Positions 12 to 63,613 of a DNA stretch of 64,000 nt are shown here, in pieces. Origin of the DNA: Mobula hypostoma. Taxonomy: Eukaryota. Under the pieces are notes generated by a model. The model saw nothing but the letters and a program-made list of their open reading frames with translations, was not told the DNA's origin and did no database searches. The stretch spans positions 5,518,001-5,582,000 of the forward strand of contig NC_086108.1 in the NCBI RefSeq assembly GCF_963921235.1, in the 5' to 3' direction. How positions within the stretch are numbered: the stretch's first letter is position 1; each line of letters starts with the position of its first letter. Position numbers and translations under genes: made by a program.

Positions 12-1253
12 CTAGCAACACACATAAAAGTTGCTGGTGAACGCAGCAGGCCAGGCAGCATCTCTAGGAAGAGGTACAGTCGACATTTCGGGCCGAGACC
101 CTTCGTCAGGACTAACTGAAAGAAGAGCTAGTAAGAGATTTGAAAGTGGGAGGGGGAGGGGGAGATCCGAAATAATAGAAGACAGGAGGGGGAGGGATGG
201 AGCCAAGAGCTGGACAGTTGATTGGCAAAAGGGATATGAGAGGATCATGGTGCAGGAGGCCTAGGGAGAAAGAAAAGGGGGTGGGGGGGACCCAGAGGAT
301 GGGCAAGGGGTATAGTGAGGGGGACAGAGGGCGAAAAAGGAGAGAGAGAAAAAGAATGTGTGTATATAAATAAATAACAGATGGGGTACGAGGGGGAGGT
401 GGGGCAATAGCGGAAGTTTGAGAAGTCAATGTTCATGCCATCAGGTTGGAGGCTACCCAGATGGAATACAAGGTATTGTTCCTCCAACCTGAATGTGGCT
501 TCATCTTTACAGTAGAGGAGGCCGTGGATAGACACATCAGAATGGGAATGGGACGTGGATTTAAAATGTGTGGCCACTGGGAGATCCTGTTTTCTCTGGC
601 GGACAGAGGGTAAGTGGACGTAGAATTAAAATGTGTGGCCACTGGGAGATCCTGCTCCCAATGGCCACACATTTTAATTCCATACCCCATTCCCATTCTG
701 ACATGTCTATCCACGGCCTCCTCTCCTGTAAAGATGAAGCCACACTCAGGTTGCAGGAACAACACCTTATATTCCGTCTGGGTAGCCTCCAACCTGATGG
801 CATGAACATTGATTTCTCAAACTTCCGCTAATGCCCCACCTCCCCCTCGTACCCCATCCGGTATTTATTTATATACAAACATTCTTTTTCTCTCTCTCCT
901 TTTTCTCCCTCTGTCCCCCTCACTATACCCCTTGCCCATCCTCTGGGTTCCCACCCTCCCCCTTTTCTTTCTCCCTAGGCCTCCTGTCCCATGATCCTCT
1001 CATATCCCTTTTGCCAATCAACTGTCCATCTCTTGGTTCCATCCCTCCTCCTCCTGTCTTCTCCTATCATTTTGGATCTCACCCTCCCCCTCTCAAATCT
1101 CTTACTAACTCTTCCTTCAGTTAGTCCTGACGAAGGGTCTTGGCCCAAAACGTCGACTGTACCTCTTCCTAGAGATGCTGCCTAGCCTGCTGCGTTCACC
1201 AGCAACTTTGATGTGTGTTGCTTGAAATTCCAGCATCTGCAGATTTCCTCGTG
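12..1253. mobile_element. Penelope-like fold-back insertion (two inverted ~570-bp arms)
   Basis: About 14-590 is the reverse complement of about 655-1220. GIY-YIG C-terminal remnant (EQHLIFRLGSLQPDGMNIDFSNFR). Direct repeat atcccctttat at 1-11 and 1254-1264. Confidence 0.85.
78..113 (-). ncRNA. Minimal type-I hammerhead ribozyme motif (Penelope-associated)
   Basis: Minus strand reads agtc CTGACGA a ggg-tctcgg-ccc GAAA tg TC gact, containing stem I, the catalytic core and stem II. Confidence 0.65.
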
Positions 1254-1545
1254 ATCCCCTTTATTGATTCTACTTGTAATCTCCTCAAAGAATTCCAGGC
1301 TCATCAGGCAGGATCTTCCTTGAAGGAATCCATGCCGACTTTGAACTATCTTGTCCTGTGTCACCAACTACTCCTTTACCTCATCCTTAACAATTGACTC
1401 CAACATCTTCCCAACCGCTGAGGTCAGGCTAACTGCTCCATAACTTCCTTTCTGCTGTCCTCCTTTCTTAAAGAGTGGAGTGACATTTGCAATTTTCCAG
1501 TTCTCTAGCACCATGCTAGAGTCCAATGATTTCTGAAAGATCTCA
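1254..1545 (-). mobile_element. CR1 LINE fragment
   Basis: SRHGFLQGRSCL..LEFFEEIT motif of the CR1 reverse transcriptase. Confidence 0.75.
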
Positions 1546-1803
1546 TCTTGAGTGCAGCATCAGAGTACAGCTCACAGAGCTCTTCCTCTTCTCTCAAAGT
1601 CAAGTTCTCAGGCTGAACAGAAGATTCAGAGAAAGGGTTCCTCACCCAGTCATACACTTGTGTTGAAAGGGAGGAAAAATACTGTTCAATTTTGTTCGGC
1701 ATTTCTTCTAGGTGGTTTTCAATAAGACTTGAGACTTTCTGATATCCTTCCTCAATCTCAAGGCCAAGCAGCAAAGGAAACATTTCAAGATTTCCTGATA
1801 CAT

Positions 1804-2024
1804 AGGCTGGTTGGTGGCGTAGTGGCATTAGCGCCAGACTTTGGAGCAAAGGCTTCCGAGTTCAAACCCAGCCGGCTCCCTGGAACGCTTTCCATCCGTG
1901 CTGGGTTGACCGTCAAGCTAGCAACTCGACCTCGTAAAAAAGAAATTCCCTGTTACAGAAACATCAACAGCAAAAAAAGTTGATGGCCTATGCTCTCTCG
2001 TGAGTTTAAAAGGCAATTTCCTTT
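1804..2024 (+). mobile_element. tRNA-derived SINE
   Basis: A-box TGGCGTAGTGG and B-box GAGTTCAAACC. 13-bp target duplication tttcct(g/a)atacat at 1791-1803 and 2025-2037. Confidence 0.8.
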
Positions 2025-2375
2025 TTTCCTAATACATGATTTTCCAAAGATTCAGTTTCCTTTTAAATCCAAGAATCATGTCACTTAAAGTCAAAATATT
2101 TTCTCCAGGGCCTTGCAGAGACTTGTTCAACTGGTTCATATGATGTCAAATGTCGGTTAAGTAGGCTAGTTTCTGCAGCCATTCTTCACCTTCAAAGCAC
2201 TTAGAAAAATCTGGCCTATTTTCTTGAAAGTACTCCTGCAATTCACCTTTCAGCTCAAACACCCTGTTGAGAACTGTTCCTCTGCTAAGCCACCGGATTT
2301 CTGTCTGTAGCAGGAGATTGGTGTGCTCTTTTTCCAGGCTTTCATACAATTTTTAAGCATTCCTGAGTGAACTTA

Positions 2376-5508: not shown

Positions 5509-5734
5509 TCAAAACGACCTGCTGTACCACAAACTGCATATATGAATTTTTTTAACAATCCCTCATAACACACTTCGCACTTATCCTCAGGTCTTATATT
5601 ATGCAATCTCATCATCCTGCCCATTGTAAACCAGACACACAATTCTATCACATCTCTTTTTCTCTGGAGAGGAGAACTTGAGAGAAGTGTACTAAATTGC
5701 ACTAGATCCAATTAGACACTATTAAGAACAAAAG

Positions 5735-6072: not shown

Positions 6073-6467
6073 AAAACGAACGACACAGGCACAGGAGCTC
6101 TGAATGCACGGACCTCCGCTCTCTCGATCCCAAACCTACCATCAAACAAATGGGCACTGTTGTAGTGTGGCCGACTGACTACTACCTAGCTGAGGCCAGG
6201 CGACAATTCTCAGACACATCCTCTTACCTCCCCATTGAAAAGGACTCCACTCTAGACCATCAGTAAACTGTCTCCAACACCATCATTAACCTCATAAACT
6301 CTGGAAGACGTCCATCAACTTCCACCATAGTTCCCTTAGCCCGCACTGCTCACTTCTACCTCCTACCCAATATCCACAGACCTGACTGTCCAGGTAGGCC
6401 CACTGTTTCCTCCTGCTCCTGCCCCACTTGTGTCTTCATACCTCGACTCCATTCTATCCCTCTTCTT

Positions 6468-9400: not shown

Positions 9401-10569
9401 TTGCGGTACCCCACTAGTCACCGCCTGCCATTCTGAAAGACTAACACAAAATAGTTGTTCAATGTCTCAGCCATTTCCTTATCACCCAATATCAATTTCC
9501 CCTTCTGGTCTTCCACTTTAGTGACCCTCTTCCACTTTATATATTTATAAAAACTTTTGCTATCTGTTTTGATATTTTGTGCTAATTTACTTTCATACTC
9601 TATCTTTCCTTTCCTTATTTCTTGTTTAGTTGTTCTCTGTTACTTTTTAAAGTTTTCCAAATCCTCCAGTCTCCCATTACTCTTTGTGACTTGGTACATG
9701 AGCTTTTAATTTGATACTATCTTTTATTTCCTTAGTTATCCAAGGCTGGCTCTCCCCACATTTACTGTCCTTACTTTTGACTGGAATATACTTTTGATGA
9801 GCACTGTGAAAAATCTCTTTGAAAGTATTCCACTGTTCCCCAACTGTCCCACCAAATAGCCTGTGCTCCCAACTCCTCCCATTGTAGTCTCCCTTGTTCA
9901 AGCATAATACGCTAGTCTTAGATCTAACTATTTCATCCACCATCTGAATGAGAAATTCAATATACTATGACCACTCTTTCCAAGAGGATCCCTGACTACA
10001 AATTCATTAATCTTACCTGTCTCATTGCATAGGACTAGATCTAAGGTAGTATTTTCCCTTGTAAGTTCACTAACATGCTGCTCTAGAAAGTCATCACGGA
10101 TGCATTCTATGAAGTCCTCCTCAAGACTTCCTTGACCAACCTGATTCACCCAATCTATGTAGAAGTTAAAATCCACCATGACAACTGCCGTTCCTTTCTT
10201 ACAAGTCGCAGTTATTTCTTGGTCAATCACCTCTGCTACTGCAATATTTTTATTAGGTGGCCTATAGACAACACCCACCAGTGATCTTTTCCCAGATGGA
10301 CTCAACATTCTGCTCCGCAGATCTTATATCAGCTCTCACAATCGCCCTGATCTCATCCCTAATAAAGAGTGTCACCCCACTTCCTCTGCCTTCCTGCCCA
10401 TCTTTCCGTATTACCTGATACCCTTGGATATTTAATTCCCAGTCACTCCACCTTGCAACCAGGTTTCTGTAAAGGCCACTAAATCATACGCCTTGATACT
10501 GATCTGTGCCACAAGTTCACTAACCTTGTTTCTAATACTACGGGCATTTAGATAAAGTGCCCTTCTACT
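6468..10569 (-). mobile_element. CR1 LINE with two further CR1 inserts
   Basis: ORF2 pieces: VGVVYRPP (endonuclease), QHGFRKGRSCLT, FADDTKL, LVRPHLEYCVQFWSP. Confidence 0.88.
8390..9438 (-). mobile_element. Young 5'-truncated CR1 LINE with an uninterrupted 312-aa RT C-terminus
   Basis: ORF 8483-9421 (SGVPQGSVLGP, FADDTKL); (acatagaa)2 tail at about 8390-8408. Confidence 0.9.
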
Positions 10570-12494
10570 CAGTCCCTTCACACCTACATCCGCAACACTT
10601 CACAATCTCACAATCTCAACAACTTTCAATTCCCTGACTACCTCAATTTCACCATGGATGTCCAGTCGCTATGCACTTCTATCCTCCATCAAGGCCTTAA
10701 AGCTCTCTACTTCTTTCTCAACAAAACAGCCAACCAGTTCCCTTCCACCACCACCTTCTTCTGTCTAGCAGAACTGATTCTCACCCTCAAGGATTTCTCC
10801 TTCTGCTCCTCATACTTTCTCCAGACTCAAGGGGTAGCCATGGCAACATAGAACAGTCCATGTTCCAAGCCTTCCCCAGTCATGCGCCCCAAATCTTCCT
10901 CCACTACATTGATGACTGCACTGGTGCTGCTTCATGCGCCCATGCTGAGCTCATCAATTACATCAACCTTGCCTCCAACTTCCACCCTGCCCTTAAATTC
11001 ACTGACACCTCTCTCCTCTTTCTTGATCTCTCTCTATCTCCATCTCTGGAGACAGGCTGTCTACTGACATCTTTTATAAACCTACCAATACCCATGGCTA
11101 TCTTGACTACAGGTCTTCCCACCCTTTCTCCTGTAAAAAAAAAAAATCCCATTTCCTTTTCTCAGTTCCTTCATCTCCACATTTGTTCCAAGGATGAGGC
11201 TTCCCTTTCCAGAACATCAGAGATGTTCTCCTTCTTCAAAGCCTTCACCACCATTAATGCTGCCCTCACATACATCTTCTCCATTTCCTGGATATTCACA
11301 CTCACCCCACCTTCCTGCCACCTTAACAGGGACAGAGTTCCTCTTGTCCTCACCTACCAGCCATGAGCCTTCACTTCCCACACATCATCTTCTGCAACTT
11401 CTATCATCTCAACAGGATCCTACCACCAAACACATCTTTATTCCCCACCCCCCACTCTCTGCTTTCCACAGGGATTGCTCCCTCGGTGATTCCATTGTCC
11501 ATTCATCCCTCCCTACTAATCTCCCCCCGGCACATATCACTGCTAAGGACAGAAATGCTGTACCTGTCCATTTACCTCCTCCCTCAGCTCCATTCAGGAT
11601 CCCAAACATTCCTTAAAGGTGAGGCAACACTTCATTTGTAAATCTGTTGGAGATGTCTATCAAATCTGGTGCTCCTGATGCAGCTGCCTCTACATTGGTA
11701 AGACATGATGTAAATTAGGGGAGTACTTCATAAAGCAGCTCTGCTCCATCCACTACAAGCAGAATTTCCTGGTGGCCTATCATTTTAATTCCCATCCCCA
11801 TTCCCATTCCAATGTGTCAGTCCACGGCCTCCTCTTTTGTCATGATGAGGCCACTCTCAGGGTGGAGGAGCAACACCTCCTATTCTGTCTAGGTAGCCAA
11901 CCTAATGGCATGAACATTGATTTCTTCTTCCAGTAAATTATTTTTACCCTACCACTTCCCTCTTCCTCCATTGCCCACTCTGGCCTCTTACCTCTTCTCC
12001 TCACCTACCGATCATCTCCTCTGGTGACCCTCCTACTTCCCTTTCTCTTATCATCCACCGTCCTTGCCTATCAGCTTCCTTCCTTGTCAGCCCTCGACCT
12101 TTCCCACCCATCTGGCTTCACCTATCACCTTTTGGGGTAGTCCTCCCCACCACCTTTTTATTCTGCCGCCTTCCCCCTTCCTTTCCAGTCCCGAAGAAGA
12201 GTCTCAGCCCAAAACGTTGATCACTTATTCATTCCCATAGATGCTGCCGGACCTGCCAAGTTCCTCCGGTATTACATGTGTGTTGTTCTGGAACAGGAGT
12301 TGACAATATGGTCCTTGAGGCTTTGTTCTAACATCAAATAAAGTTGCCTTTGAAGGTTCACCATTTTTGAATTGTGGACTTAGTTCCTAGATACTAGTTT
12401 TGCTTTCTCCTGCTGCTATCTATATCCACTTTTGTAAATACATATTCCCCATTCCTCTATTGCTGGCCTGTAACACCTGGAGACATCCTTACTT

Positions 12495-14673: not shown

Positions 14674-14704
14674 CTGCAGAAAAGGAAAAAGGTTTTCATT
14701 TTTG

Positions 14705-14740
14705 AGTCCTGATGAAGGGTCTCGGCCTGAAACGTCGACT
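14705..14740 (+). ncRNA. Minimal type-I hammerhead ribozyme motif (Penelope-associated)
   Basis: agtc CTGATGA a ggg-tctcgg-cct GAAA cg TC gact; intact core and palindromic ACGT at stem III. Confidence 0.72.
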
Positions 14741-14834
14741 GCACCTCTTCTTAGAGATGCTGCCTGGCCTGCTGCGTTCACCAGCAACTTTGATGTGTGT
14801 TGCTTGAATTTCCAGCATCTGCAGAATTCCTGTT
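14706..14834 (+). mobile_element. Short Penelope-like 3' end with 14-bp TSD
   Basis: gttttcatttttga duplicated at 14692-14705 and 14835-14848. Confidence 0.85.
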
Positions 14835-14949
14835 GTTTTCATTTTTGAAGTTTGTCAACTTACAGGTAGGGCACCTATCCTAAACAAAACCACACAGAAG
14901 TGTACTTCAGACTGGAAATATTGACCAAGATTGGACTCTGTAGTTCATG

Positions 14950-15146
14950 CAACACACACAAAATGCTGGAGGAACTCAGCAGGCCAGGCAGCATCTATGG
15001 AAAAGACTACAGTCGACTGTCCTGCTGAAGCGTCTCGGCCCAAAATGTCGACTGTACTCTTTTCCACAGATGCTGCCTGGCCTGCTGAGCTCCTCCAGCA
15101 TTTTGTGCGTGTTGCTTGGATTTCCAGCATCTGCAGATTTTCGCTT
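14950..15146. mobile_element. Penelope-like fold-back mini-insertion
   Basis: About 70-bp inverted arms around a degenerate hammerhead; TSD ctct(g/a)tagttcatg at 14936-14949 and 15147-15160. Confidence 0.82.
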
Positions 15147-16036
15147 CTCTATAGTTCATGTTATGATGTGTTTCCGGTTTCTGGATGCTGCTTTTTATTT
15201 GTTGCTATTTTAGGTGATTTTGAATCAGAGCAGTCTGCAGATAATGAACACTGAACTAAACTGAAAATGTCTGGACTCTTTCGATTTTGTATTTTATATT
15301 GTGTCTTTCGCTTTTTTTGGTTGTCGTTTGCACAGTTTGATTTTTTTGCGCATGATGGAGGGTGGGGGATTGATGTTTTTCGTTGAACTAGTTCCACTGT
15401 TTTCTTTGTTTCGTGGCTGTCTGTGGGAAGATGAATCTCAGGGTTGTATACAGCATACATACTTCGATAATAAATGTACTTTGAATTTTTGAGCTCCATT
15501 AGGGTGAAATCTTATGGCTGAATAGAAAAAAATAACTAAATTTAAACTGTAAACAGACTATCTGCCTGGAGTAAAATGGGAAGGGGCTCCCCAGTCTATT
15601 GAGGGCACCATTCTCTGTGTAAACACAAGAGATTCCGCAGATGCTGAGCAACACAGGATGATGGAGGAACTCAGCAGGTCAGGCAGTATCTACAGAGCGG
15701 AATAACAGTCAACAATTTGGACCAAGACTCTTCATCGGGTCCTAATGAAGGGGCTTGAGTCTGAAACATTGGCTGCTTATTCCTCTCAGCAGATGGTACC
15801 TGACCTGCTGAGATCCTCCAGCAATTTGCGTGTGTTCTTCACCATTATATTTGTATTCATTTTTTGGGACCTTAAGAGTCACTGACGAGACTTCAAGAAG
15901 GCGGTGGTGAACGGCTTTACTGACAACCATGCCACTCCTTCTGATGAAGGTACTCCCAATCCCTCCCCCACAGTGGCGTTAGGCAGGGGGTGTCAGAATT
16001 GAGACTCAGTGAAAAGGGTGGCGGGGTTGAGATAAG

Positions 16037-20517: not shown

Positions 20518-21615
20518 CAGTTGCAAGCAAATTTGTGAACCCTTTGCAATAATCTGGTTTTCTGCATTAATTACACATAATTTGTAGAATGATCTTCATC
20601 TAAGCCATGAAAATAGGCAAATGCAATCTGCCTAAAATAATGACACACAAATAATTGTGCTTCTTCTCATCAATACCGAGTATACCATTTAAATAAACAC
20701 GGTCTGGGTTCAAAAAGGTATGCAAACCTCCGGGGTACTGCCTCCTACAAAAGCTATTCGGAGCCCGGTGTTTCCATCAATGAGGTGAGACTGAAGGTGT
20801 GGGTTGTAGAGGTGCCCTGCCCTTTAAGAAAGACACACGAAGTCAGAGCCTGACAGAGCCTGCTCTCTTCTCAAGAAAGATCCCTTTATGTGCACCATAA
20901 GGAAAAAGGGCAGTACACATCAACAGCAAAACCTCATCCCAACTGTGAAGCATGGAGGAAGGAGCATCATGGTTTGGAGCTGCTTTGCTGCCTTAGGGTC
21001 TAGACAGCTTGGGGACAATGAATTTAAAATCGGATCAAGATATTTTACAGGAGAATGTCAGGGTAGCAGTCCATCATCTGAAGCTAAATAGAAGTTGGAT
21101 GATGCAACAAAACAATGATCCGAAACACAAAAGTAAATCAGCAATAATGGTTTAAAAAGAAGAAAATTCGTGTTTGGAATGGCCAAGTCAGTGTCCAGAC
21201 CTTAACCCAATTGAGATGCTGTGGCATGACCTGAAGAGGGCTGTTTTTGCAAGGTATCCCAGAAATATTGATGCACTGAAACAGTTCATGTGGAGGAATG
21301 ATCTAAAATTCTTTCTCGCCATTGTGAAAGTCTGATCAGTAGCTACAGGCACCGTTTGGTGGAGGTTACTGCTGCCAAAGAAAGTTCTACCAGTTATTAA
21401 ATACAAGTGTTCACATACTTCTTCCACACTAGACTGTGAATGATTAAACAATGTGTTCAATAAAGACATGAAGAGTACAATATCTGTATGTTATTAGTTT
21501 AGGCAGATTGTGTTTGTCTATTATTGTGACTTAGATTAAGATCAGGCAATTTATGAGTAATCAATGCAGACAACCAGGTAATTACAAAGGGTTCACAAAC
21601 TTTTTCTTGCAATTG
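20518..21615 (+). mobile_element. Internally deleted Tc1-like DNA transposon
   Basis: Long imperfect TIRs (cagttgcaag...tttgtgaaccctttg / caaagggttcacaaac...cttgcaattg) flanked by TA. Transposase remnants PTVKHGGRSIMVW, QQNNDPKH and WPSQCPDLNPIEMLW. Confidence 0.88.
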
Positions 21616-26365: not shown

Positions 26366-27779
26366 AGTGTATTATCACTACAGAACCCCTTTTGCTTCCA
26401 GGCCATATGACATGAGGTGCAGCAGCTGTCACAAACCCTCATAAAGCAAATGATCAGCATAGCCAGTCACAACCTTTTCCGGAACATTCACCAGTTATAC
26501 AAGTACAAGTTCATTCAGCCCTTCCAATCCATCTGTGGTTGCAAATTAATCAAAAGTTGAATTTGCCTAAAAAGAAATTCATTACTATACACTTGCTTCA
26601 ATGCTTTAATGTTAACACAGTGTATAATATGATGAGAGGCTTTGATTGTGTGGATATAGCCAGAGGCTTTTTCCCAGGGCTAACACGAGGGGGTACAGTT
26701 TTAAGGTGCTTGGAAATAGGTACCGAGAGGATGTCAGGGGTAGGTTTTTCCACACAGAGTGCTGTGTGCATGGAATGCACTGCTCGTGGCAGTGGTGGAA
26801 GCGGATACAAAAGGGTCTTTTAAGATACTCTTAGATAAGTACATGGAGCTTAGAAAAATAGAGGGCTATGCGCTGGGGAAATTCTAGGCAGTTTCTAGAG
26901 TAGGTTACATGGTCGGCACAACATTGTGGGCCGAAGGGCCTGTAATGGGTTGTAAATTTCTATGTTCTAATATTTGTCCCATTGCCTGTGTCTGAATTCT
27001 GTATCTCAGATAATCCAAGCAAGCTGTCACCCAACTGGCCACAGGATTCCACTGAAAATTCAAAGTACACCAAGAAACACAGGAGATCAGGCAGCAACTA
27101 TGGACAACGAATGAGAGTTGACATTTTGGGCCAAGTTACTTCAGGACGGGAGGTAGATGGGCCTTGGCTCGGCCTCCCCCAGGCTGCACCAAAGGGGTTT
27201 TTGAGTGATAACTTGCTTGAAGTGGAAGTAATGGAAGGAGTATTAATGTTGAAACGAGTATATAGTAATGAATTTTAGGGGTTTTTTTGAGCTTTCATAT
27301 TTTCTTAGTGCAATGGTATTAATTTTGGTTTAAAAATGCCCGGCCTTTTTAAGGGCTGAATGATCTTATAAGATTTTTGAAAGTGATTGTCCTGTTCCAG
27401 AAAATGTAACCAGCCAGCCACGTCAAAAATAGACGAGCTGGTCATTGCCTCGAGGGGTTTGTGACATCTTGCTGCCTACAAAAAAACAGCTGCTGCTCTT
27501 CCTGTCGAATTAGATTGGAAGCAAAAGGAGTTCTTTCGAGACGAGAGGGTCTGCAGATGCTGTAAATGCAAAGCAACTCACACACGTAATGCTGGAGGAA
27601 CTTGGCAGGTCAGGCAGCACCAATCGAAAGGAATAAAAAGACAACGTTCGTGGCCGAGACCCTTTAACAGGACTGGAAAGGAAGGGGGAAGACGCCAGAA
27701 TAAAAAAGGTGGGGAGGGGTAGGGGTTAGGATTGGAGCCGAGCACAGCTTCAGCCAGTCGGCAGGCACTCTCCCTGGGT

Positions 27780-28290
27780 TCTGTGCTCCAGTCCCTGCGT
27801 TATGGGAGACGGAAGGCCGCTGGTCCGGGCCGGGCTGGGAGCGGGACAGGGATCGGCTGGACTTCGCCGCCACCGAGCTCTGGGGCTGCTCGTCCCTCCC
27901 CAGGCCCTGGAGCCCATTTCTCAATCAAGGAGACGTATCTGGATTCGCCGCCGAGTTCCGAGGCCTCTCCCCCCTCCCCAGGACCAAGATCGGTCTTCTC
28001 GCCCCAACCCGAGATCCGCATCTCAATCTGCCGCCGACACCATGAGCGGGTTCACCCGGCACTTACCGAGAGTCACAGACACCATGTTGGCTCCGCGGCG
28101 CGCCCAACGTCATCTCCGGGCGCCCGACGGGAAGACGACCTACAACCAGTTACTAGGGAGACGAGATAACGAGACAGTGACAGATCAGAAACAGCCAATC
28201 AGAGGGCCGCGCCTGGAGATGGGCGGGGTGGGCTAACCAGAGGCAACGTCGGCAGATGGCGGGTATCTGTGAATATCGCCCAGACTAGAG
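27780..28290 (-). promoter_or_regulatory. CpG island and housekeeping-type promoter of C19orf47
   Basis: The most strongly CpG-rich stretch in the window. CRE-like TGACGT (28107-28112, minus), RFX X-box-like GTTACTAGGGAGAC (28149-28162), CCAAT (28195-28199) and GC box GGGCGGGG (28221-28228). Confidence 0.8.
28067..28085 (-). CDS. C19orf47: C19orf47 orthologue, coding part of exon 1 (MVSVTL + phase 1)
   Basis: gccaacATGGTGTCTGTGACTCTCG|gtaagt: strong Kozak context and consensus donor inside a CpG island. Joins in frame to the exon at 14586-14673. Confidence 0.88.
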
Positions 28291-28577
28291 TCAGGCAATG
28301 AAAGTCTCTACATACCCATTCCATTTCTTTGGAATGGGCGACGCATAGACCTGGGGTACGGTCAGAATTGGGATCGTCATCATCATCGTGATGTGCCGTG
28401 TCCAATTGGAGTAACTATGGACACTATCTGGGCAAGGGGTAGTTGTGGACAGTAGATATTGTCCATAATTACCCCATGTCTAGGTACTCTCCATAGTTAT
28501 CCCATGTCTAGGCATTACCATTGTTACCCCATGTGTAGATATTGTCCACAATTACCTCATGTCTAGATATTACCATA

Positions 28578-28786
28578 AACACAAAATAATCTGCAGATGC
28601 TGTTGTCAAAGGAACACTCACAATGTGCTAGAGGAACTCAGCAGGTCAGTCAGCATCAGTTGAAAAGATTAGTCAACGCTTTGGGCGGAAACCCTTCGTC
28701 AGGACAAAGGGTTTCGGTCCGAAACATCGACTAATCTTTTCAACTGATGCTGACTGAGCTGCTGAGTTCCTCCACCGCATTGTGAG
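28578..28786. mobile_element. Penelope-like fold-back insertion inside the satellite
   Basis: Inverted arms with a hammerhead-like centre (minus gtcCTGACGAagggtttccgccc; plus ggtccGAAAcaTCgact). Confidence 0.78.
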
Positions 28787-30702: not shown

Positions 30703-31010
30703 GGACAATATCTAGACATGGGGTAACTACAGACAATATCTAGACATGGGGTAACTATGAACAATATCCAGACATGGGGTAACTATAGAGAGTACATAGA
30801 TGTGGGGTAATTATGGACATTGTCTACACATAGGGTAACTTTGGTCATGCCTAGACATGGAATAACTATGGACAATACAAGAAATGGGGGTATATCTAGA
30901 CATGGTTTAAATATGCACAATATCTCAACATGGGGTAACTATGGACATTATCCAGATATTGGATAACTATGGACAATGCACGGAAATGGGGTAACAATGG
31001 ACAATACCCA

Positions 31011-34184: not shown

Positions 34185-36130
34185 GGCCAGTTAGCCCTAC
34201 TTCAGTGGTTGGGAGAATGTTGGAGTCCGTTATTAAGAATGAGGTTTTGGGGTACTTGGAGGCACAGGATAAAATAGGCTGAAGTCAACATAGCAGCACA
34301 CACAAAATACTGGAGGAACTCGGCAGGCCAGGCAGCATCTATGGAGAAGTGTCCTGTTGAAGGATCTCAGCCTAAAACGTCGACTGCATGCGCCTCCACA
34401 AATGCCGCCTGGCCTGCTGAGTTCCTCCAGCATTTTGTGTGTGTTGCTCTGGATTTCCAGCATCTGCAGTTGTCTTCATGTTTGTGAAGTCAGATGATTT
34501 CTTTAATGGAAAATCTTGTTTGAAATGTTGTTCCCCCAACCCTTTTCTTCTATTCCCTACCTTGACTTCTTACCTCTTCTTATCTGTCTATTGCCTCCCA
34601 CTGGGTTCCTTCCACTTTCCCTTTCTGTTATGGTCCATTCTCCTCTCCCATCAGATTTCTTCCTCTCCAATCTTTCACCTTTCTCATCCACCTGGCTTCA
34701 GCTATCACCTTCTCGCTATCCTCCTTCCCCTTTCCCCCCACCATCTTTTTATTCTGGCAGCTTCTCCCTTCCTTTCCAGTCCTGAAGAAGGGTCTCAGCC
34801 CGAAACTTGGACTGTTTATTCATTTCCACAGATGCTGCCTGACCTGCTGAGTTCTTCAGCATTTTGTCTGTGTTGCTTTGGAATTCCAGCATCTGTAGAC
34901 TTTCTCGTGTTTAAGATATGCAGGAATTATTTGAAGAGATAATAGACAGGATAGACAGAGGAGAGTCAGTGGATTTTGTTTAGTTGTACTTTCAAAAGGT
35001 CTTTGACATGGTGCCATACATGAGGCTGCTAAACAAGATAAAAGCCCATGGTATTACAAAGATACTAGCATAGGTAGAGCATTGGCTGCTGACAGGAGGC
35101 AAAGATTGGGAATGAAGAGGGGCTTTTCTGGTTGGCTAGTGGTGACTTGTGATGTTTTGTAGGGGTTGTATTGGGACAGTTTCTTTTTACAATATACAGT
35201 ATGTCAATGATCTGTTTGACAGAATTGATGGTTTTGTGGCCATGTTGATGGGTAATACAAAGATAATATGGGGGCAGGTGGCATTGAGGAAGCAGGGAGT
35301 CTGCAGAAGGACTTGGACAGGTTGGGAGACTGGTCAAAGAAGTGGCAGATGGAATTTAGTGTAGGGAAGTTTATGGTCTTAGAATAAAGGTGTAGACTAT
35401 TTTCTAAACAGGGAGCAAATTCAGAAATTGTTGGTGCAAAGGGACTTGGGAGTCCTAGTGTAGGATTTCCTGAAGGTTGAGTCAGTGGTGAGGAAGGCAA
35501 ATGCAATGTTAGCACTCATTTCAAGAGGACTAGGATATAAGAGCAAGGATGTAATGCTGAGGCTTTATAAGGCATTAGTCAGATCACATTTGGTGTATTG
35601 TGAGCAGTTTTGTGCCCATGTCTTAAAAAAATGTGCTGGGTTTGGAGAGGGTCCTGAGAAGGTTTACAAAAATGATCTCAGGAATGAAAGAGTTAACATA
35701 TGAGGAACTTTGATGGCTCTGGGCCTGTACTCACTGGAGTTTAGAAGAATGAGAATGAGGGTGACCTCGTTAAATCCTTTCAAATATTGAAAGACCTAAA
35801 CATGGAAAGAATGTTTCCTGTAGAGGGGGAGTTTAGGATCAGAGCAAGATGCCTCAAAATACAAGAATCTCTATTTAGAACAGAGTTGAGGAGGGATTTC
35901 TTTAGCTGGAGGGTGGTGAATCTGTGGAATTCATTGCAATTGATGGCTGTAGAGGCCAGGTCATAGGGTATTCGTATTTAAAATGGAGGTTGATAGGTTC
36001 TTGATTAGTAATGGTTTCAAAGCTTACTGAGCGAAGGCTGGAGAATGGGATTGACAGGGATAATAAATCAGCCATGCTGGAATGGCAGAGCAGACTCGAT
36101 GGGCCGAATGGCCCAATTCAGCTCCAATAA
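34185..36130 (+). mobile_element. Old CR1 LINE interrupted by two Penelope-like inserts
   Basis: FQKVFDMVP and VRKANAMLALISRG; fold-back insert at 34290-34483. Confidence 0.75.
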
Positions 36131-36873
36131 CCATGGAAGAAAGGGAAGGGAAGTTCGAGAAATTGATGTTCATTCTATCAGGTTGGAGGCTACCCAGATA
36201 GAATATAAGGTGTTGCTCCTCCAACTTGAGTGTGGACTCATCACAGCAGTCAAGGAGGCCAAGGAGTGACATGTCGAAATGAGACTGGGAAGTAGAATTG
36301 AAATGGGTGGCCACCTGGCAAATTCTGCTTTTTGTAGCCATCATCAGAAATCCACACTACCCAGGTCATGCTTTCTTCCTGGGAGACTGCTTTGTTGAAC
36401 ACCTTCTCTCTGTCCGCCACAAAAAGTGGGATCTCCCAGTGGCCTTATATTGTCTGGGTAGCCTCCTACGTGATAGTACCAACATCAATTTCTTGGAACT
36501 CCTAGTAATTGCCCCCACCATTCCCCCATTCCCATTTCCCTCTCTTACCTTGTCTCCTTACCTGCTCATAACCTCCCTCTGGTGCTCCTCCCTTCCCTTT
36601 CTTCCATGGTCTTCTGTCCTCTCCTCTCAGATTCCCCCTTCTCCAGCCCATTATCTTTTTTACCAATCAACTTCCAAGCTCTTTTCTTCACCTCTCCTCT
36701 CTCCCGGTTTCACCTATTGCCTACCACCTTGTACTCCTTTCTCCCTCCTTCCCCACCTTCCTGCTCTGACTTCTCATCCCTTTTTCCGGTCTTGATGAAG
36801 AGTCTCGGTCTGAAATGTTGACTCTTAATACAGTTCCATAGATGCTGCCTGACCTGCTGAGTCAGCAGGTCAG

Positions 36874-36874
<1 letters not shown>

Positions 36875-36902
<28 letters not shown>
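36875..36902. repeat. (TG)n microsatellite
   Basis: About 14 TG units, expanded from the gtgtgtgt tract of a Penelope-like tail. Confidence 0.9.
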
Positions 36903-36904
<2 letters not shown>

Positions 36905-39900
36905 GTTCTGGATTTCCAGCATCTGCAGATTTTTTCATGTTCGTGAAGTCAGATACAACACTATGTAACAGTTTCATCTTACACATTACATTATAACCAA
37001 TGATTCTGCTTATAAAGTATATTCAAATGTTTCAGCTGGATTATTGCAGTTGCAATGACAGCTAAGTGGCTGGTGTTTGCTGTCATTACATGGTAAAAGT
37101 GATTGCAGACTTCTCTGACACAATCTTGGGAAAACTGTGAATCAAGAAAAATTATAGTATTTACAAATTAAACTAGTAACTCAGAATGACCTCTGAGGTA
37201 AGATTGGGGAATGAATAAGATAAATATCTTTTGTGTCTGGTGCTCCTGATGCAGCCTCCTCAACATTGGTGAGACCCGTTATAAATTGTGGGACTGCTTC
37301 ATTGAGCACCTCTGCACCATCCGACACAAGCAGGACTGCCCGATTACCACAGTTTAATTCCCATTCCCATTCCCGTTCCGACATGTCGATCCATGGCCTC
37401 TTGTACTAAGATGAGGCCACCATCGGAATGGAGGAGCAACACCTAAAATGCCTCCAACCAGATGGCATGAATATCAGTTTCTCCTTTTGGTAAACAAATT
37501 CCCTCCACCTTCCTCTATCCCCCACTCTAACCTTTTACTTCTTCTCACCTGCCTATTATTTCCCCTGAGTCTCCTTCTCCTACGGTCCACTCTCCTCCCC
37601 TACCAGATTCCCTCCTCTCCAATCCTTGACCTTTCACACCCACCTGACTTCACCTATCACCTTCCAGCTAGCCTCTTTCCCCTCTCCCCTTTCTATTCTG
37701 GCATCTACCCCCTTCTTTCTCAGTCCTGAAGAAGGAAATCGGGCCAAAACGTAGACTATTTATTAATTTTCATTGATGCTACCTAACCTGCTGAGTTCAA
37801 TGAGCATTTTGTGTGTGTTGCTTCAGATTTCCAGTATCTACAGAATTTCTCCTGTCTATTACTGAGGTCCCCTGGAGACATTGGAATGGTTGAAGGACTT
37901 CTGCATATCAGATGATAGAAAATGCACTCATCTGAAGCAAACACAAGAGTGTAAATAGGAAGACCAAGATGCTGCCATTTTTGAAAAGCCTTTTATTTTA
38001 ATCTGTGTAACTTGGTACATGTAAAATTATATCCCAGATTTATACAAAATGAGAAGATTTTTTTTTACATTTTGTGGAACTTCAGTATTTGGATTAATGT
38101 ACCTACATTTAAAAAAAATCAGGAGACTAACTGCAGCTCAGAGATTCCTGTTAAAATGTCTTCCAGAAAAATCGGGAATCTTTTCCTCTTCTGGAGGTGC
38201 TGGACTACAGCTCCTCAGGTCCTGGCTTAACTCACCTACTTGTGTAAGGCCAGTCAGCAGAGAGACATTATGGGTAGGTCCAAGTCCAGCCACATCCTGG
38301 CTTCTCGTGCTCTCTAACTGCTCACCGGGAAGTGAATGGCTAATAGTTAATGGGAAGCCAAGACAATTCCCCTTCCTCAGCAACATTTATTTATATATTT
38401 ATAGAGATACAGCACAGAACTGGTCCTTTCAGCCCAACGAGACGCACTGCCCAGCAACCCACCTATTTAACACTAGTCAAATCACGGGGCAGTTTACAAT
38501 GGCCAATTAATCTATGCCTTTGGACTGTCAGGGAAACTGGAGTACCCGGAGGAAACCCACGCAGTCACTGGGAGAACATACAAACTCCTTGCAGATGACA
38601 TTGGAATTGGACTCCAAGCTCTGGAATATCTTGAGCTGTAATAAGAGTTCCTCTTGCTGTGGTAGGAGTGATACCTCTCTCTCCTTTGTCAGTGAGAGAG
38701 AGAGACTGTGGCATGTCAAACTTTTGAGATGGACAGTAGTTTTTGATGGACTCTAGATCATGGTCTCTGAGGGCTTTGCTATTGCTTGCATGGTGGCAGG
38801 TGGGGGAAAAGGTGATGCTTTGCTGCGGCTTGTGTGTGGGAGGGGCTGTGGGGTTCTAACATTTTTCCTGTCATTCATTCTGTTTTTGTGGATGTCTGTG
38901 AAGAGTAAGAATTTCAGGTTGTATACTGGAAACATTCCCCGATATTAAATGGAACCATTGAACCATTAACTGCTACGCTATCGTGTCACCTAGTAGTAGA
39001 GGACAAAATTAGTTTTGATGTGGAGAATTATTTCATCCACGTTAATATTTTAAAAAAAGCACAGTTCCCTCACTGTGACATTTATTTCTTTGATGCCAAG
39101 CACATCTCCACATCAGCTCAATCAGCACTGGTGCACCTCACTTTTTGCCTTGGATCTTCCAAACCCTGTGCTATGAACATTACAAAACTGGTCTTTCTTC
39201 GTTGAACCCCACAACATTGATTTAATTTAGACTTACCTCTTTTGTACCATACTTCAACCAGTCTCCATGAATACAACATCCTCCTCCACTACTTTGCTTC
39301 ATTTTAAGGGTGAATGAAACAAATTTAAAATTACTTTGGAATTCAGATTAAATGTTTAAAGTGACACACTGTGCAAAATAGCAAAGGGTGGTGTGTCAGC
39401 ATACGTCCTACACCAAAAATCCCTGAGGCAAAGAATTAAACCTTTCATTTTAAAGAACTATTTAAAAAAAAAAGTAGTTCAGGACATGGGCAAGATTCTA
39501 CAAAACGTAGTGAATATGGCCCAGGCCATCACAGGTAAATCCCTCCAACCATTGAGCATATCAACACAGGGCATTTATGCAGGAAAGCAGCCTCCTTCAT
39601 CAGGGACCCCCACTAGCCTGGCCATAATCTTTTCTCGCTGTTGCCATCAGGTAAAAGGTCCAGGAGCCCAGGACTCACATCACCAGGTTCAGGAACAGTT
39701 ACAAAAAGGGATAACTTCACTTGCCCCATCACTGAAATATTCCCTCAACAATTGGGCTCACTTTCAGGACTCTTTATCTCATTTTCTCAATATTTATTGC
39801 TTATTGAATTATTATTTCTTCTATTTTCTATTTGCAATTTATTATCTTCTGCACTCTGAGTAAACGTCCAAGTTGGACAGTCTTTCATTGATTCTGTTTG

Positions 39901-45530: not shown

Positions 45531-48500
45531 CTTCCCCTGCTTCCAATTGTCATGAAGCTGGAAGTTGCATGAATCTTTACAACCTTTTTTTAAAAATATA
45601 AATGTTATGGACCAATACCATTAAAGCAAAGGGTCTGTGGACCTGAGGTTGGGAACCCGGCTTCACAGCTTGCTTGACGTTGTTTTTTCAACCTAGTCCC
45701 TACGGGTAACTTACTGACTGCATGAGCGTGGTATTGCACATGGCACGTTAAGGGTACTGACGGCGGTGATCAGTTGGATGGCACTGAGGGACTGACAGTT
45801 GAAGGTGGATTTGCTGCAGCTCTGAAGTCGGGTCACTGGTTCTGTAGTAGCATTACGCTACCATGCCACCTCTAATAATGCACTGGTGCTACACTAGACC
45901 GTTCAGGGATCCTCTCGGTTAATGGTCGGGGGTCAATGGCATAGAAAAGGCTGGGAACCCTGGTTTATTGTTAATTTCTTTCCAGCTTGACAATTAATTA
46001 CCTGCTTGTATTTTTTATAATGATAGGTTGATAGAGTCGTAAGGAAGGCTTTTGGCATGTTGGCTTTCATAATTCAAAGTACTGAGTACAGGAGATGGGA
46101 TGTTATGTTCAAGTTGTACAAGACATTGCTGAGGCCTAATTTTAAATATTGCGTGCAGTTCTGGTCACAGGACAGATGTAAATAGGTTTGGGTTGAAAGA
46201 TTACAGACAAAATCTACAAGGATGTTGCCAGACTGAAAGACCTGAGTCATAAGGAAAGATTGAATAGGTTAGGACTTTATTCCTTAGAAGGTAGAAGATT
46301 GAGAAGAGATTTGATAGTGGTATAAAAATGTGAGGGAAGTATAGATAGGATAAATGCAAGCAGGCTTTTTCCACTGAGGTTGGGTGGAACTACGACCAGA
46401 GGTCATGTGTTACGAGTGAAAAGTGAAAGGTTTAAGGGAACATGAGGGGAAACTTCTTCGTTCAGAGGGTGGTGAGTGTGTGGAATGAGCTGCCAGCACA
46501 AGTGGTGCATGCAAGCCTGATTTCAATGTTCAAGAGAAGGTTGGATAGGTACAAGGATGGTAGGGATATGGAGGGCTAAGGTCACATGCAGGTTGATGGG
46601 AGTAGGCAGTTAATAATGCTTGGCATGGACCAGATGGGCCAAAGTACCTGCTTCTGTATTGTACTTTTCCAATGCTCTACTTACATACATGTAACTGTTT
46701 CGTATGTTTCCTAGTGGCCACAGTATGTATATGCAATTTTTTCAGTGTGTTCCCTTGTGGTTACATTTTTATGATTCTGGAAGTTTCTCTTGGTACTGCA
46801 TTATACGAAACGTGGCTATCTGATTGGTTAACTCTTATCCACAAATTTAAACGGAATGTTTCTCATCTACATGCATGTTATATGAGAAGGATTGACCACA
46901 AAGCTCTGTCCTCCTTTGCTTCTCTCTCCCTTCATTTGTTGGACTTCTATCACTGTCCGTTTTTCAAATTTCTTTGTTCTAACAGTGCTTAATAAAATTA
47001 TTGTGAAGAAACAAGCTTGCGGCTCTCTTCTGACTTCTGAAAGAACCTTGGATTAAAAAACATCAGAATCCAATGACACTCTACAACTCTCAACAGTGAT
47101 CATGAGAAAGATGCAGACATGATTTAACCTCTCATCTGACAGATGAGATTTCTGAGAAAGCAGCATTGTACTGGGGTGTCAGCCTTTTAACCACAAGTTT
47201 CTGACTCAGAACCATTAGTCTGCGACTGACTGAGCCACAGCTGAGAGAGCCTCACGTCTCCGAAATGCTACAAGTTACAAATTTGCATTGGAAGTGAAAC
47301 GATATGTTGTTTCTTTTCGGTTAATCTAATAGATTACTTTCAAGGATGTGAACAAGAGCCAAGAAATCTGGCAAGCATTTATTTTCACATGTATCAAAAT
47401 ACACAGAGATAATGGACTACAGTGTTTTTTTTTGTTTTAAATAAAAGTTAGGGGCAAACCTCCAGAGCAGGATATCATTTCATAGGATAGCAGACAAAAT
47501 GAAGACAATGACGACGATTTTTCCCAGGGGAAGTGGCAAGACGTCACATAGCCAGTTGTTGGACTCCAAAGTTTATAATCCAAGGTTCTTTTTGGAAGTC
47601 AGGAAAGAAGCACAAAATTTGTTGCTTCCCTGTCATTTTATTAGGTGTTAATAGAACAAATAAAATTGAAAGATGGACAGTGATAGAGGAGTCACAATCA
47701 TGAGGAAATCTGCAGATGTTAGAAATCCAAGCAAAACACACAGAAAATGCTGGAGGAACTCAGCAGGCCAGGCAGCATCTATGGAAAAGGGTAAACATTT
47801 GATGTTTTGGGCCGAGACCCTTCATCAGGACTGATGGAGGTCTAGTAAGTGAAGGCAGTGAGAAACAAAGAATGACAGAGCCTCGTAGTCAACCCTTCTT
47901 ACGTGACATACATGTAGATAAAAAACATTCAATTTAAATTTGTAGATGAGAGTTAACCAATCAATTAATTTCTTCCTGAAATGCATCCACTGTTGCAACT
48001 GAGGAAATACTGTGGCCAATTTATAAGCAGCAAGCTTGCAAAAACAGTGCAATAACGGCTGCAACATAGTTTAGTTTAGTAATCATCAAAACAATGAGAT
48101 GGTAACTTTTATCCAACTGTTGCTGGATGGCACTTTACTATCTTATGCTTTTCTAACAAAGCAGCACTCGCTCATGTCAGAGATATTGATGCATTTGCAA
48201 AGAGGGCACGCCAGTGGCTCGATTTCTTTCAAGATGCTAGAAGAACTCAGCAGGTCAGGCGGCGTCTATGGAGAGGAATAAAGAGTCGAAGGTTTGGACT
48301 GAGACCAGTCATCTGGTCCTGTGCGTATTGCTCTGGATTTCTAACATCTGCAGATTCTCTTGAGGCTATATTGCATTAAGGGTTTGAGGAAATTTGCTTT
48401 GGCACCAAAGACTCTAGTAAATCTCTACCGATGCACCGTGGAGAGCATTGCTCTGCTTGCATCGCTGGTATGGAGGCTCCAATGCACAGGATTGGAAAAA

Positions 48501-52354: not shown

Positions 52355-52812
52355 GGGGGTGGGAAAGCCCTCCATTTCTTTCTAGACACCAGATCAAACC
52401 AGTTCCACTCCACTACCACTCTCCTCTGTCTAGCAGGACTTGTCTTCACTCTTAATAATGGTTTTCCTTTGGCTCCTCCCACTTCTTTCAAACAAAAGGT
52501 GTAGCCATCGGCACTCATATGGGTCCTAGCTATGCCTGCCTTTCTGTCCGCTACATGGAACAGTCCATACTCCAAGACTACACTGGTGTCCACCCTCCAC
52601 ATTTCCTACGCAACATCGACGACTGCATTGGTGCTGCTTCCTGCACCCATACTGAGCTCGTCAACTTCATCGACTTTGCCCCCAACTTCCACCCTGCCCT
52701 CGAATTTACCTGGTCCATTTCCGACACCTCCCTCCCCTTTCTCAATCTCACTGTCTCTATCTCTGGAGACAGCTTATCTACTGATGTCTATTATAAACCA
52801 CAGACTCTCACA
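52355..52812 (+). mobile_element. Penelope-like RT fragment
   Basis: KGVAIGTHMGPSYACL...FLRNIDDCIG...NFHPALEFT...LPFLNL...TDVYYKP. Confidence 0.82.
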
Positions 52813-60300: not shown

Positions 60301-61159
60301 TCTCCCGTCAATCTTCTACATCCCAGGAATAAAGTCCCAACCTATTCAATCTTTCCCCATAACTCAGATCCTCCAGACCCGGCAACATCCTTGTAAATTT
60401 TCTCTGCGCTCTTTCAACCTTATTTACATCTTTCCAGTAGGTAGATGACCAAACTACACATAATACTCCAAATTAGGCCTCACCAACTTCTTACAGAACT
60501 TAAAAGTAGCATCACAAACTTGCTCCTCAAATCTTCTTTAAACTTTCTCCATCTCATCTTAAATGGGTGTCCAACTTCCCTTTAGGTTTGGAGGCAATTC
60601 GATGTGACAGAACTGAGACAAGGCAGTGGGCTCATCGCAGACGGCCAGGAAGACCTGAAGTTCAAACAGTCCAAGCGCCGAATCTCAGAAAGGGTGGATC
60701 AAGGCAGCGGGGTCCAGATCCCTGAGTGCATCGAAGCAACAGAACCTGATGCTTGGATGACAATTTAAGCACCGGGCTGAACTGGAAGAGTCAAGTTCGG
60801 GCTCCAACGTATATCAGAGCGACTGAATCCAATGTTTGGACGATGTTTTAGGCGCCAGGTCAGATTGGAAAGGTCAGGGTGTTGGGGCCCGACTGGTTCA
60901 GCTCGATGCTCTGTGCTGAACTAAGGGTCCCTGGAAGGACTCTCTTTGTGAACTTCAGAATGCTATTTGCTTGTTTACTGTTCACATGATTTGTTTTTCT
61001 TTTCCTCTGCACACTGGGTGTTCGGCACTCTTCTTTTCTTTCCCCCACTGGGTTCTTTGTTTCGTGGCTGCCTTTTGGGAGACAAATCTCAAGGTTGTGT
61101 AATATACAGTAAACATACTTTGATAATAAATGTACTTTGTACTGTCTAATAATTAACAT

Positions 61160-61327
61160 CACAAACAGATCTGCAGATGCTGGAAATCCAAGCAACACAC
61201 ACAAAATGCTGGAGGTACTCAGCAGGCCAGGCAGCATCTATGGAAAAGAGTACAGCTTGAAGTGTTATCTGCACTTTTTTCCATAGATGCTGCCTGGCTT
61301 GCTGAGTTCTGCCAGCATTTTGTGTGT
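61160..61327. mobile_element. Penelope-like fold-back mini-insertion
   Basis: Inverted ~55-bp arms flanked by taataatt(aacat/tatat) direct repeats. Confidence 0.75.
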
Positions 61328-62652
61328 TAATAATTTATATTTCTGCTCTGAGGGAAAAAAAAGAATCTGACTGTCTGGGTGAGCAAATAAACAAATTTGA
61401 TACAGAGACAAAAGCAAAACACTGCAGATGCTAGAAATCGGCGATTAAATAAAAACAAAGTCGCTGGAATTAGTAGGTTACGCAGAAAGAGGAATAAAGA
61501 GTTAACATTTCAAATCGCTGACTTTTACGCCAGAACTGGATAAAATTGGTGATACAATAAATGTTAAATTACAAAGGAAAGGAGGGGAAGGGGCAAAGAG
61601 ATCAGTTGGAAGATAAAAGGTGATTAAATCACAGCCAAAAATAAACCAGTGCAGTAACTCAGTGGACGAGCAGATCTGTGGAGGCAAAGAGATGGTCAAT
61701 GATTCAGAACAAGACCTTGATTCAGTTTGTGTGATGCGCACTACAGCTGAATCATTCTCTGAATCTCGTCACCCACAATTAATGTACAAAATATACAAAA
61801 TTTCATGGCTTCAATGTTTCTATCGCTAATCTTATGGAGATGCTTGTTTCATAGATGTCCGTGAAGAGTATGAATTTCAGGTTGTATACGTTCTCTGATA
61901 TTAACGTGAACCTTTGAACTATGAGGGGTAGACAGGGTAAATGCAAGTAGGCTTTACTCATGGTGGGTAGGTGAGACTAAATCTAAAGGTTAAGGGTGAA
62001 AGGGGAGGCTTCTTCACTCAGAGGGTGGTGCGAGTTGCCAGAGGAAGTGGAGGATGCAGATTCCATTTCAATATTTAAGATAATTTTGTACACAGTACAC
62101 AGACGCAAGGGTCAAAGGGATTAGACAGAGTAACAATTCAGCATGAAATAGATGGGCCAAAGGGCCTGTGGCACTCTATCAGTCCATTGATGTAGTACAA
62201 GGGAAAACCATATCAAAATGAATAACATATTACAGAGAAATATACAAAATTATGAGGTTTATAGATGGTAAATGCAAGCAGGTTTTTTCCACTGAGGTTG
62301 GGTGGGACTACAACCGGAGTTCATGGGTTAAGGGTGAAAGGTGAAAAGTTTAAGGGAAACATGAGGGGAAACTTCTTCACTCAGAGGGTGGTGTGAGTGT
62401 GGAACGAGCTGCCAGCGGAAGTGGTGGATACAATTTGGATAGGTACATGGATTGGAGGGGTACGGAGGTCTGTGGTCCTGGTGCAGGTCAATGAGACCAA
62501 GTAGAACAACAGTTTGACATGGACTAGACAGGCTGAAGGGTCTGCCTCTGTGCTGTAATGCTCCATGACCCACGCTGGGGAAGACATTGAAGAGGTTGTC
62601 ATCAGCAGTCTAAAGGACAGACAGGGAAACGATTTTGTGTTCTGCACATTAC

Positions 62653-63165
62653 CTTTGATCAGCTGCTGCAGGGCCGCGTATCTCTTGTTGCGAACGTTTG
62701 TTCGAGCACTTTTCTTCTTTGATGACTTCCGCACCTCGTTGCAGTAGAAAGTTACTTCGTAGTTATCAGACAAGTGACTGAAGCAGACCAGGTGCTCCTC
62801 TCTGATGATCTTGTGAAACCGTTCGAGGAAAACCACTGGCTTGCAGTAGAAAAGTTCCTTGACGATGGACAGCTTCTGGTCATAGCGCAGGTCAGGCTCG
62901 TCCTTTTGTTGACTTTTGATCACAGCCTTGCTGCTAGAGATTGCATGGAACATACTGTTCAGTGAAGCGTCCATGGCGGCTTCCTCCTGAAGATCGGTCT
63001 GCTCCTCGATTGCTGCTGCAGAGGCAGGGGAACCAGGCTGATTCTGTGCTCCTTCATCTTTCGGGGTGTCTCGACCCTCATTAGGAATTACCAGCATCTC
63101 TTCAACCTGAGTATTTACTTCCTGAGTGACAGCATCTGGTGAAGAATCATCTTGCATTTGAAAAC
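62653..63165 (-). CDS. CCDC97: CCDC97 coding exon (probably exon 2)
   Basis: Acceptor catag|GTTTTCAAATG and donor AAAG|gtaatg; 513 bp, phase 1 to 1. Encodes ...SQQKDEPDL...KPVVFLERF...NKRYAALQQLIK, which matches vertebrate CCDC97 from memory. In-frame ATG at 63157, but an upstream coding exon outside the window is likely. Confidence 0.93.
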
Positions 63166-63450
63166 CTATGGGTAATTTAATTTTCCTATTAATTAACCAG
63201 CTTATAAACATTTAGTTTTTAAGAAAATAAAGCCCAAAAGAGGTAGAAAGAATTCCGTCGGTACTGGAAATGCACTGAAAGCCAGTCACCATTTTGTGGA
63301 GTAAAGGCATTCGAAAGACTGGAATGGTCAAAACTAATCTCACTTTGGAACAGAACTCTATGGAAATTTAGTATTTGTTTTAATTTCCCTTCTAATTTTA
63401 ACCTGCCTTTCTGTATTAAATTGTCTAAATCTAGTATTTCCAATATAGAT

Positions 63451-63613
63451 AAAGCAACATACATCAAAGTTGCTGGTGAACGCAGCAGGCCAGGCAGCAT
63501 CTATAGGAAACGTCGACTGCGCCTCTTCCTATAGATGCTGCCTGGCCTGCTGCGTTCACCAGCAACTTTGATGTATGTTGCTTGAATTTCCAGCATCTGC
63601 AGAATTCCTGTTG
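63451..63613. mobile_element. Young Penelope-like fold-back mini-insertion with perfect 14-bp TSD
   Basis: Arms of about 58 bp that appear perfectly complementary; tttccaatatagat at 63437-63450 and 63614-63627. Confidence 0.88.

Follow-up and report, generated by a model that had tools for sequence, protein, structure and literature searches.

How does a retroelement come to leave inverted copies of its own 3' end, folded back on themselves and carrying a tail on one side only? The question is raised by 64,000 nucleotides of the ray Mobula hypostoma (contig NC_086108.1 of assembly GCF_963921235.1, positions 5,518,001 to 5,582,000; this whole stretch is the window, and coordinates count from its first letter), in which an earlier note had pointed out six fold-back inserts of Penelope-like design. 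The inserts are 5'-truncated 3' ends of an endonuclease-bearing (EN+) Penelope-like element (PLE), i.e. one with a reverse transcriptase (RT) plus a GIY-YIG domain. We give roughly two chances in three to the reading that each insert is a single, dead integration product, formed by two primings and joined head to head.

Eight inserts with a one-sided tail

A profile of the element end was built from 15 window copies and searched across the 64-kb window. It returned 30 matches, 16 of which make up eight head-to-head inserts (H1 to H8, Table 1). The six inserts of the earlier note were all recovered by sequence alignment and profile search, in place and with the design described there; H7 and H8 are additional. 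In all eight, the two newcomers included, one arm bears the tail and its partner stops about 30-45 nt short, as had been proposed. Were the arms to choose their ends independently, the probability of 8/8 asymmetry would be 0.0003-0.004. Over all 30 matches the 3' ends are bimodal, with 11/30 at profile positions 141-159, 1/30 at 164 and 18/30 at 178-191. The fixed stop that had been claimed for the tail-less end needs loosening from one base to an interval about 10 nt wide (146-155, with H8 at 141): the end falls at about 146 in two inserts, at 151-155 in five and at 141 in one. Solo, non-inverted copies stop at this proximal site as well (3-4 of 14).

Arm lengths across the fold-backs range from 55 to 570 bp. 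The tail-bearing arm exceeds its partner in length in H2, H3, H4 and H6, and the two are about equal in H5. In H7 it is marginally shorter, in H1 (by about 40 nt) and H8 clearly so. The two arms of H1 are not identical in 46 of 574 alignment columns, and its tail-less arm extends some 40 nt further upstream. About 42 nt of the same antisense arm (613-654) are duplicated right before the turn, resembling a template slip. One extra base separates the arms of H2, about 13 nt of filler those of H5, whereas the H6 arms are identical over 54/54 columns and share 3 nt of microhomology at the turn. The arms of H8 do not overlap (profile 53-141 antisense, 140 to tail sense).

At 36149-36946, an antisense endonuclease-end piece and a long sense copy face each other head to head. 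They possibly make up a ninth fold-back, a long one, in which the end of a long interspersed nuclear element (LINE) cut away the tail-less arm. The 11 nt past the tail are common to H4 (34485-34495) and to the solo ending at about 36946 (36944-36954), the subfamilies of the two being different. The matches at 25214 and 26372 were considered as a single insert and rejected on differing subfamily marks and the lack of a target site duplication (TSD).

Target site duplications

The inserts are flanked by TSDs of about 11-16 bp. The lengths given in the earlier note were borne out at 14936/15147, 28564/28787, 61147/61328, 63437/63614 and 1/1254; the exception is H4, where the reported 8 bp are probably the remnant of a decayed duplication of about 12-13 bp. 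An automated search found the pairs of H1, H2 and H6 complete and, for H4 and H5, an 8-bp core only. Scores at least as high as those of these TSDs occurred in 1.3-4.3% of 300 random pairs of positions and in 1/56 mismatched edge pairs. On H3 the same search returned a satellite unit instead, on H8 it yielded no pair, and the TSDs of H3, H7 and H8 were assigned by eye and from in-window paralogs.

Three inserts (H3, H4, H8) sit in other repeats, and after removal of the insert and one duplicate the in-window paralogs match, giving TSDs of 14, about 12-13 and about 16 bp. Deletion of H3 with one TSD restores the phase of its satellite, a 28-bp tandem array with an internal inversion at 28450-31060, and the H8 target is present once in two in-window LINE paralogs. 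The in-window search for empty sites was blank for H2, H5, H6, H7 and both of the solo copies that carry exact TSDs. These two duplications, of 14 and 11 bp, have the same length as those of the fold-backs. For 9/11 solo copies, whose edges are uncertain, the automated search gave nothing significant.

Identity of the element

The long arms run from the GIY-YIG C-terminus through a pyrimidine-rich 3' untranslated region (UTR) and a minimal hammerhead motif into the tail. A decayed long copy in the window (Table 1) ends in the same pseudo-long-terminal-repeat (pLTR) sequence and matches two RT plus GIY-YIG proteins in tblastn with E of about 5e-39 to 5e-41, aligning with residues 417-903 of P0013 and 409-887 of P0020; the latter contains RVT_1 and a weak GIY-YIG match. 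The open reading frames (ORFs) of the window alone gave no Pfam family match. A second RT fragment has its closest named relatives in rays and sharks, and isolated fragments of the same Penelope-like RT occur at 6099-6428 and 52358-52800. The element probably belongs to the Neptune clade, because a linker Cys motif, a feature drawn from PMC8557442, is seen in the homologues P0013 and P0020; the window copy is frameshifted at that place.

An optional tail and an inverted 5'-truncated copy inside one TSD pair, a feature of EN+ PLEs, occur in 8/8 inserts. The tandem arrays of non-LTR retrozymes were not found: window copies are dispersed or head to head, and the joints listed for public contigs (see below) include few of head-to-tail type. 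Exact-motif scans of metagenome contigs and of viral contigs returned 0 loci each.

Inner starts cluster at the hammerhead edge

The predicted hammerhead consists of helix I, a CUGANGA core, helix II, GAAA and a palindromic helix III. Rfam gave no hammerhead family match, its three weak matches all lying below gathering scores. Five fold-backs (H2, H3, H4, H7, H8) and the solo copy at 14706 share the same 5'-most base, which is the 5' edge of helix I. This amounts to 6/9 short insertions, with a probability of about 2e-6 under a uniform null chosen post hoc, and means that the longer arm begins at one fixed site in 5/8 fold-backs. The starts of the partner arms vary (profile about 56, 58-62, 81, 96 and 140). 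The inner breakpoints thus do differ among copies, as the earlier note had it, but they are not scattered, since the longer arm usually starts at the hammerhead edge. One extra base, A on the cDNA strand, is found at the helix I edge in H2, H4 and possibly H3.

Long copies continue through this edge. There they read YAG in 9/10 and match an initiator-like consensus in 8/10, and an intron of D. virilis is described as terminating at the 5' end of helix I (PMC4209133). A search for a spliced template found no common upstream exon at the junctions beyond 1-2 nt, and the edge may be a start site, a splice acceptor or an RT stop. A consensus fold of 11 element ends has 1/25 pairs with a compensatory change and leaves the start sites without supported structure. 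A turn at the ribozyme cut site was also considered as a general rule and discarded, because the only arms beginning near that site are the two of H5 and one of H2.

Contigs from public DNA runs

Beyond the window, contigs from four public DNA runs (X1, which may be the source sample, X5, X15 and X17) were aligned to 940-1540, and the results concern those loose-end rows (24 of 2449) and joints (15 of 157) that were listed. No contig spans the whole 940-1540 stretch, and depth was not taken as copy number. Among the rows listed, loose ends pile up at the distal end, 1253, in three of the four runs (515, 428 and 465 contigs), which supports a fixed distal end; the flanks at these ends are T-rich and agree poorly. 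Among the joints listed, a head-to-tail joint 1246 to 1123 occurs in 5, 3, 0 and 1 contigs of the four runs, and a strand switch 1123/1211 like that of H8 in 2, 1, 0 and 0. At other loci, contig joints thus show again both the break at the hammerhead 5' edge and the arrangement seen in H8. In run X5, a head-to-tail joint 1233 to 1123 contains one extra G at depth 310, which could reflect cap copying.

How the fold-backs may have formed

The element protein would nick both target strands about 11-16 nt apart, and each nick would prime cDNA on element RNA. One cDNA would start from the distal RT start site and include the tail, the other from the proximal site about 30-45 nt upstream and omit it. 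The two would extend toward each other, stop and be joined head to head via microhomology or a few filler bases, after which repair would leave an inverted repeat between TSDs. The window itself shows the identity of the inserts as PLE ends, their asymmetry, their TSDs and the breakpoint positions. Both-strand cutting and extension, the two start sites and the predicted dimer are taken from the literature (PMC11167929, accessible part), whereas two primings per insert, the use of one RNA and the position of its 5' end are what we infer. The strict one-of-each pattern suggests that both primings would take place in one ribonucleoprotein (RNP) and probably on the same RNA. The hammerhead 5' edge would often be where the longer cDNA ends, most simply if the template RNA begins there.

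The competing account that survives best, although we judge it improbable, is a snap-back, in which the 3' end of the distal-site cDNA folds at a short palindrome and copies itself, the copy being cut or stopped at the proximal site before it joins the other target end. It draws on a perfect 10-bp palindrome at the H2 turn, a small hairpin at the H1 turn, the microhomology of H6, the longer tail-bearing arm in 4/8 inserts and the fact that both arms always belong to one subfamily. Moreover, junction palindromes have been read as self-priming (PMC3846280) and the tail ascribed to endonuclease resolution (PMC8557442) in the accessible text of these papers. Yet a snap-back works only if the tail arm extends upstream to the end of its copy or beyond. 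H1 and H8 are therefore not explained by it, and the tail-less arm is also marginally longer in H7. Solo copies ending at the proximal site, and the mapping of both ends to RT start sites in the accessible part of PMC11167929, likewise speak against it. The non-overlapping arms of H8 and the longer tail-less arm of H1 thus favor two primings over self-copying of the tail-bearing strand.

Amplification of a preformed hairpin master, either a miniature inverted-repeat transposable element (MITE) of DNA type or a hairpin RNA retrotransposed whole, is very unlikely. The fixed start of the longer arm in 5/8 fold-backs would suit it, but all eight junctions differ and the inserts split into four subfamilies (our own labels); the earlier note, too, had argued against a MITE master. 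The two arms of an insert share their subfamily marks in 7/7 testable cases, and in 4/7 the arms are more similar to each other than to any other copy. DNA MITEs have symmetric terminal inverted repeats, a uniform length and center, and short, superfamily-specific TSDs of 2-9 bp; here the TSDs are variable and 11-16 bp long, the ends are asymmetric in 8/8 and there are eight different centers. The note had associated a MITE origin with fixed classes of inner breakpoints and 2-8-bp TSDs, and of these only the former is partly seen, in the longer arms. The same ends furthermore occur as solos, arm length varies over the tenfold range given above, and just one of the 15 contig joints listed is a strand switch. 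Least probable is a later origin of the inverted arms, through local rearrangement of an inserted copy or through a second copy landing alongside: the density of the family (30 ends per 64 kb) and the identical H6 arms, which later conversion could produce, are outweighed by arms that lie within one TSD pair, always head to head, of the same subfamily and with one end of each kind, and by H3, H4 and H8 targets that restore cleanly against in-window paralogs.

Several points weigh against two primings. The palindromes at the H1 and H2 turns fit self-priming, and the partner arm is no closer than 2-5 other copies in the older inserts H4, H5 and H7. The PLE of Anolis studied in vitro, PAc, showed no start-site difference between strands in the accessible part of PMC11167929, so the strict asymmetry is unpredicted; its start region is AC-rich, that of the ray element GU-rich. 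The proximal end is not among the 24/2449 loose-end rows listed and is confirmed in the window only; at 1123, the count of 507 loose ends is confounded in that it includes other subfamilies with different upstream sequence. The sample comprises eight inserts, with three TSDs placed by eye. Nevertheless, the proposal of the earlier note, de novo formation at integration with a fixed internal start, is supported by asymmetry in 8/8, eight junctions, several subfamilies, 11-16-bp TSDs and the non-overlap in H8, even if it is largely published already.

A further step, not yet described, is offered as speculation that we doubt: a single RNP may make two copies of one RNA, each start site being obligatorily occupied by one RT, and the template may often be a short RNA from the hammerhead 5' edge (start site or splice acceptor), a unit of about 130 nt moving like a short interspersed nuclear element. 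Abutting arms would then arise when the distal RT stalls at the point from which the proximal cDNA starts.

Host gene and surroundings

The only host gene mapped is CCDC97, whose first exon lies outside the window. No second host gene was found in the 145 of 194 unmasked ORFs scanned, the matches being CCDC97 and one DDE fragment. H5 and H8 lie in CCDC97 introns, H6 upstream of the first mapped exon, and H1-H4 and H7 beyond the last coding exon. The earlier note suggested that the inserts would seed intronic double-stranded RNA hairpins; of the six that it listed, two (61160 and 63451) fall within CCDC97 and four are outside the only host gene mapped. Rfam microRNA matches were far below gathering scores. 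Other features are a DDE_3 transposase fragment at 21156-21332 and a GC-rich island at 27700-28240 with long open frames and no Pfam match, a possible promoter or repeat.

Table 1. Mapped features of the window, with flanking duplications and basis of assignment.
Feature	Position	Strand	TSD (left / right; match)	Basis or remark
H1 fold-back, long, subfamily A	12..1253	.	1-11 / 1254-1264; 11/11	arm comparison; left TSD copy cut by window edge
H1 tail-less arm, antisense	~12-612			plus repeated antisense piece ~613-654
H1 tail-bearing arm, sense	655-1253			begins in GIY-YIG C-terminus
H2 fold-back, subfamily B	14950..15146	.	14936-14949 / 15147-15160; 13/14	tail-less arm 14950-15017, tail arm 15019-15146 from hammerhead edge
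H3 fold-back, subfamily D, tail left	28578..28786	.	28564-28577 / 28787-28800; 13/14	in 28-bp satellite
H4 fold-back, subfamily B	34293..34484	.	34280-34292 / 34485-34497; exact 8-bp core, ~12-13 bp by paralog, decayed	inside LINE fragment
H5 fold-back, subfamily B, tail left	61160..61327	.	61147-61159 / 61328-61340; 11/13	CCDC97 intron
H6 fold-back, subfamily A	63451..63613	.	63437-63450 / 63614-63627; 14/14 exact	upstream of first mapped CCDC97 exon
H7 old fold-back, subfamily C, tail left	15621..15839	.	15606-15620 / 15840-15854; 12/15, decayed	profile search; TSD by eye
H8 head-to-head, arms abutting	48230..48361	.	48214-48229 / 48362-48377; 11/16, decayed	profile search; CCDC97 intron
Solo short copy, non-inverted, hammerhead 5' edge to tail	14706..14834	+	14692-14705 / 14835-14848; 14/14 exact	
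Minimal hammerhead motif in pLTR end	1124..1159	+		read from alignment against PMC4209133 description
Decayed long copy: RT, thumb, GIY-YIG end, 3' UTR, same pLTR end	10561..12293	+		tblastn
CCDC97, four coding exons	63160-62654, 54367-54170, 51293-51171, 44248-44120	-		Mobula protein match 95-100%

Comparison with known systems

The copies themselves are dead debris of known architecture, and their breakpoints give hints on how a Penelope-like element copies itself. The papers compared here are cited from their accessible parts. For Penelope-like insertions, a 5'-truncated copy adjoining the 5' end in inverted orientation is described, together with a tail of 30-40 bp that is usually confined to one end (PMC8557442). 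One case combines a 9-bp TSD and a 31-bp tail with an inverted pLTR that is shorter by 37 bp (PMC3846280), and inverted repeats of variable size are frequent, also in transformed D. melanogaster (PMC2377424). The ray inserts resemble these complex EN+ PLE insertions in the head-to-head inverted copy at the 5' end, the one-sided tail, the variable arms, the single TSD pair round the unit and the palindromes or microhomology at the turn. They differ in being reduced to the last 130-600 nt and in their TSDs, which measure about 11-16 bp in the ray and 8-10 bp in the Adineta examples; a hammerhead-edge inner start and a non-overlapping variant are not stated in the accessible text on the published insertions.

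PAc of Anolis, a Poseidon element, provides a biochemical parallel in PMC11167929: both strands undergo cutting and extension, the tail lies between two RT start sites, these sites are found about 90-130 nt downstream of the hammerhead core, and targets are AT-rich. The ray element is probably from another clade, Neptune, and differs in the base composition of its start region. For PAc, the accessible text contains a predicted dimer, no strand bias in the start site and no model of inverted products. The minimal hammerheads of metazoan PLEs share the pLTR motif and occur as opposite-strand pairs 100-700 bp apart (PMC4209133), their breakpoints and TSDs not being analyzed in the accessible part. 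Likewise, the parts seen of PMC8969392 and bioRxiv 10.64898/2026.07.22.740005 hold nothing contrary to two primings.

According to the accessible text, the origin of PLE inverted structures is still open (PMC8557442) and the later steps are unvalidated (PMC11167929); a ray genome with many short fold-back copies makes this question cheap to test. Literature searches, with most subscription papers outside reach, returned no paper on twin priming in Penelope or on elasmobranch fold-backs. The inverted copy, the one-sided tail, the two RT start sites and both-strand cutting are already published. The additions made here are modest, namely the strict asymmetry, the insert with abutting arms and the preference for starting at the hammerhead edge.

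In LINE-1 twin priming, a second target nick primes an internal second cDNA, which results in an inversion within one TSD pair. H8 has the twin-priming form. Unlike in LINE-1, where the second site is variable and the arms are not duplicated, the second site of the ray element falls within a fixed interval and the arms usually overlap.

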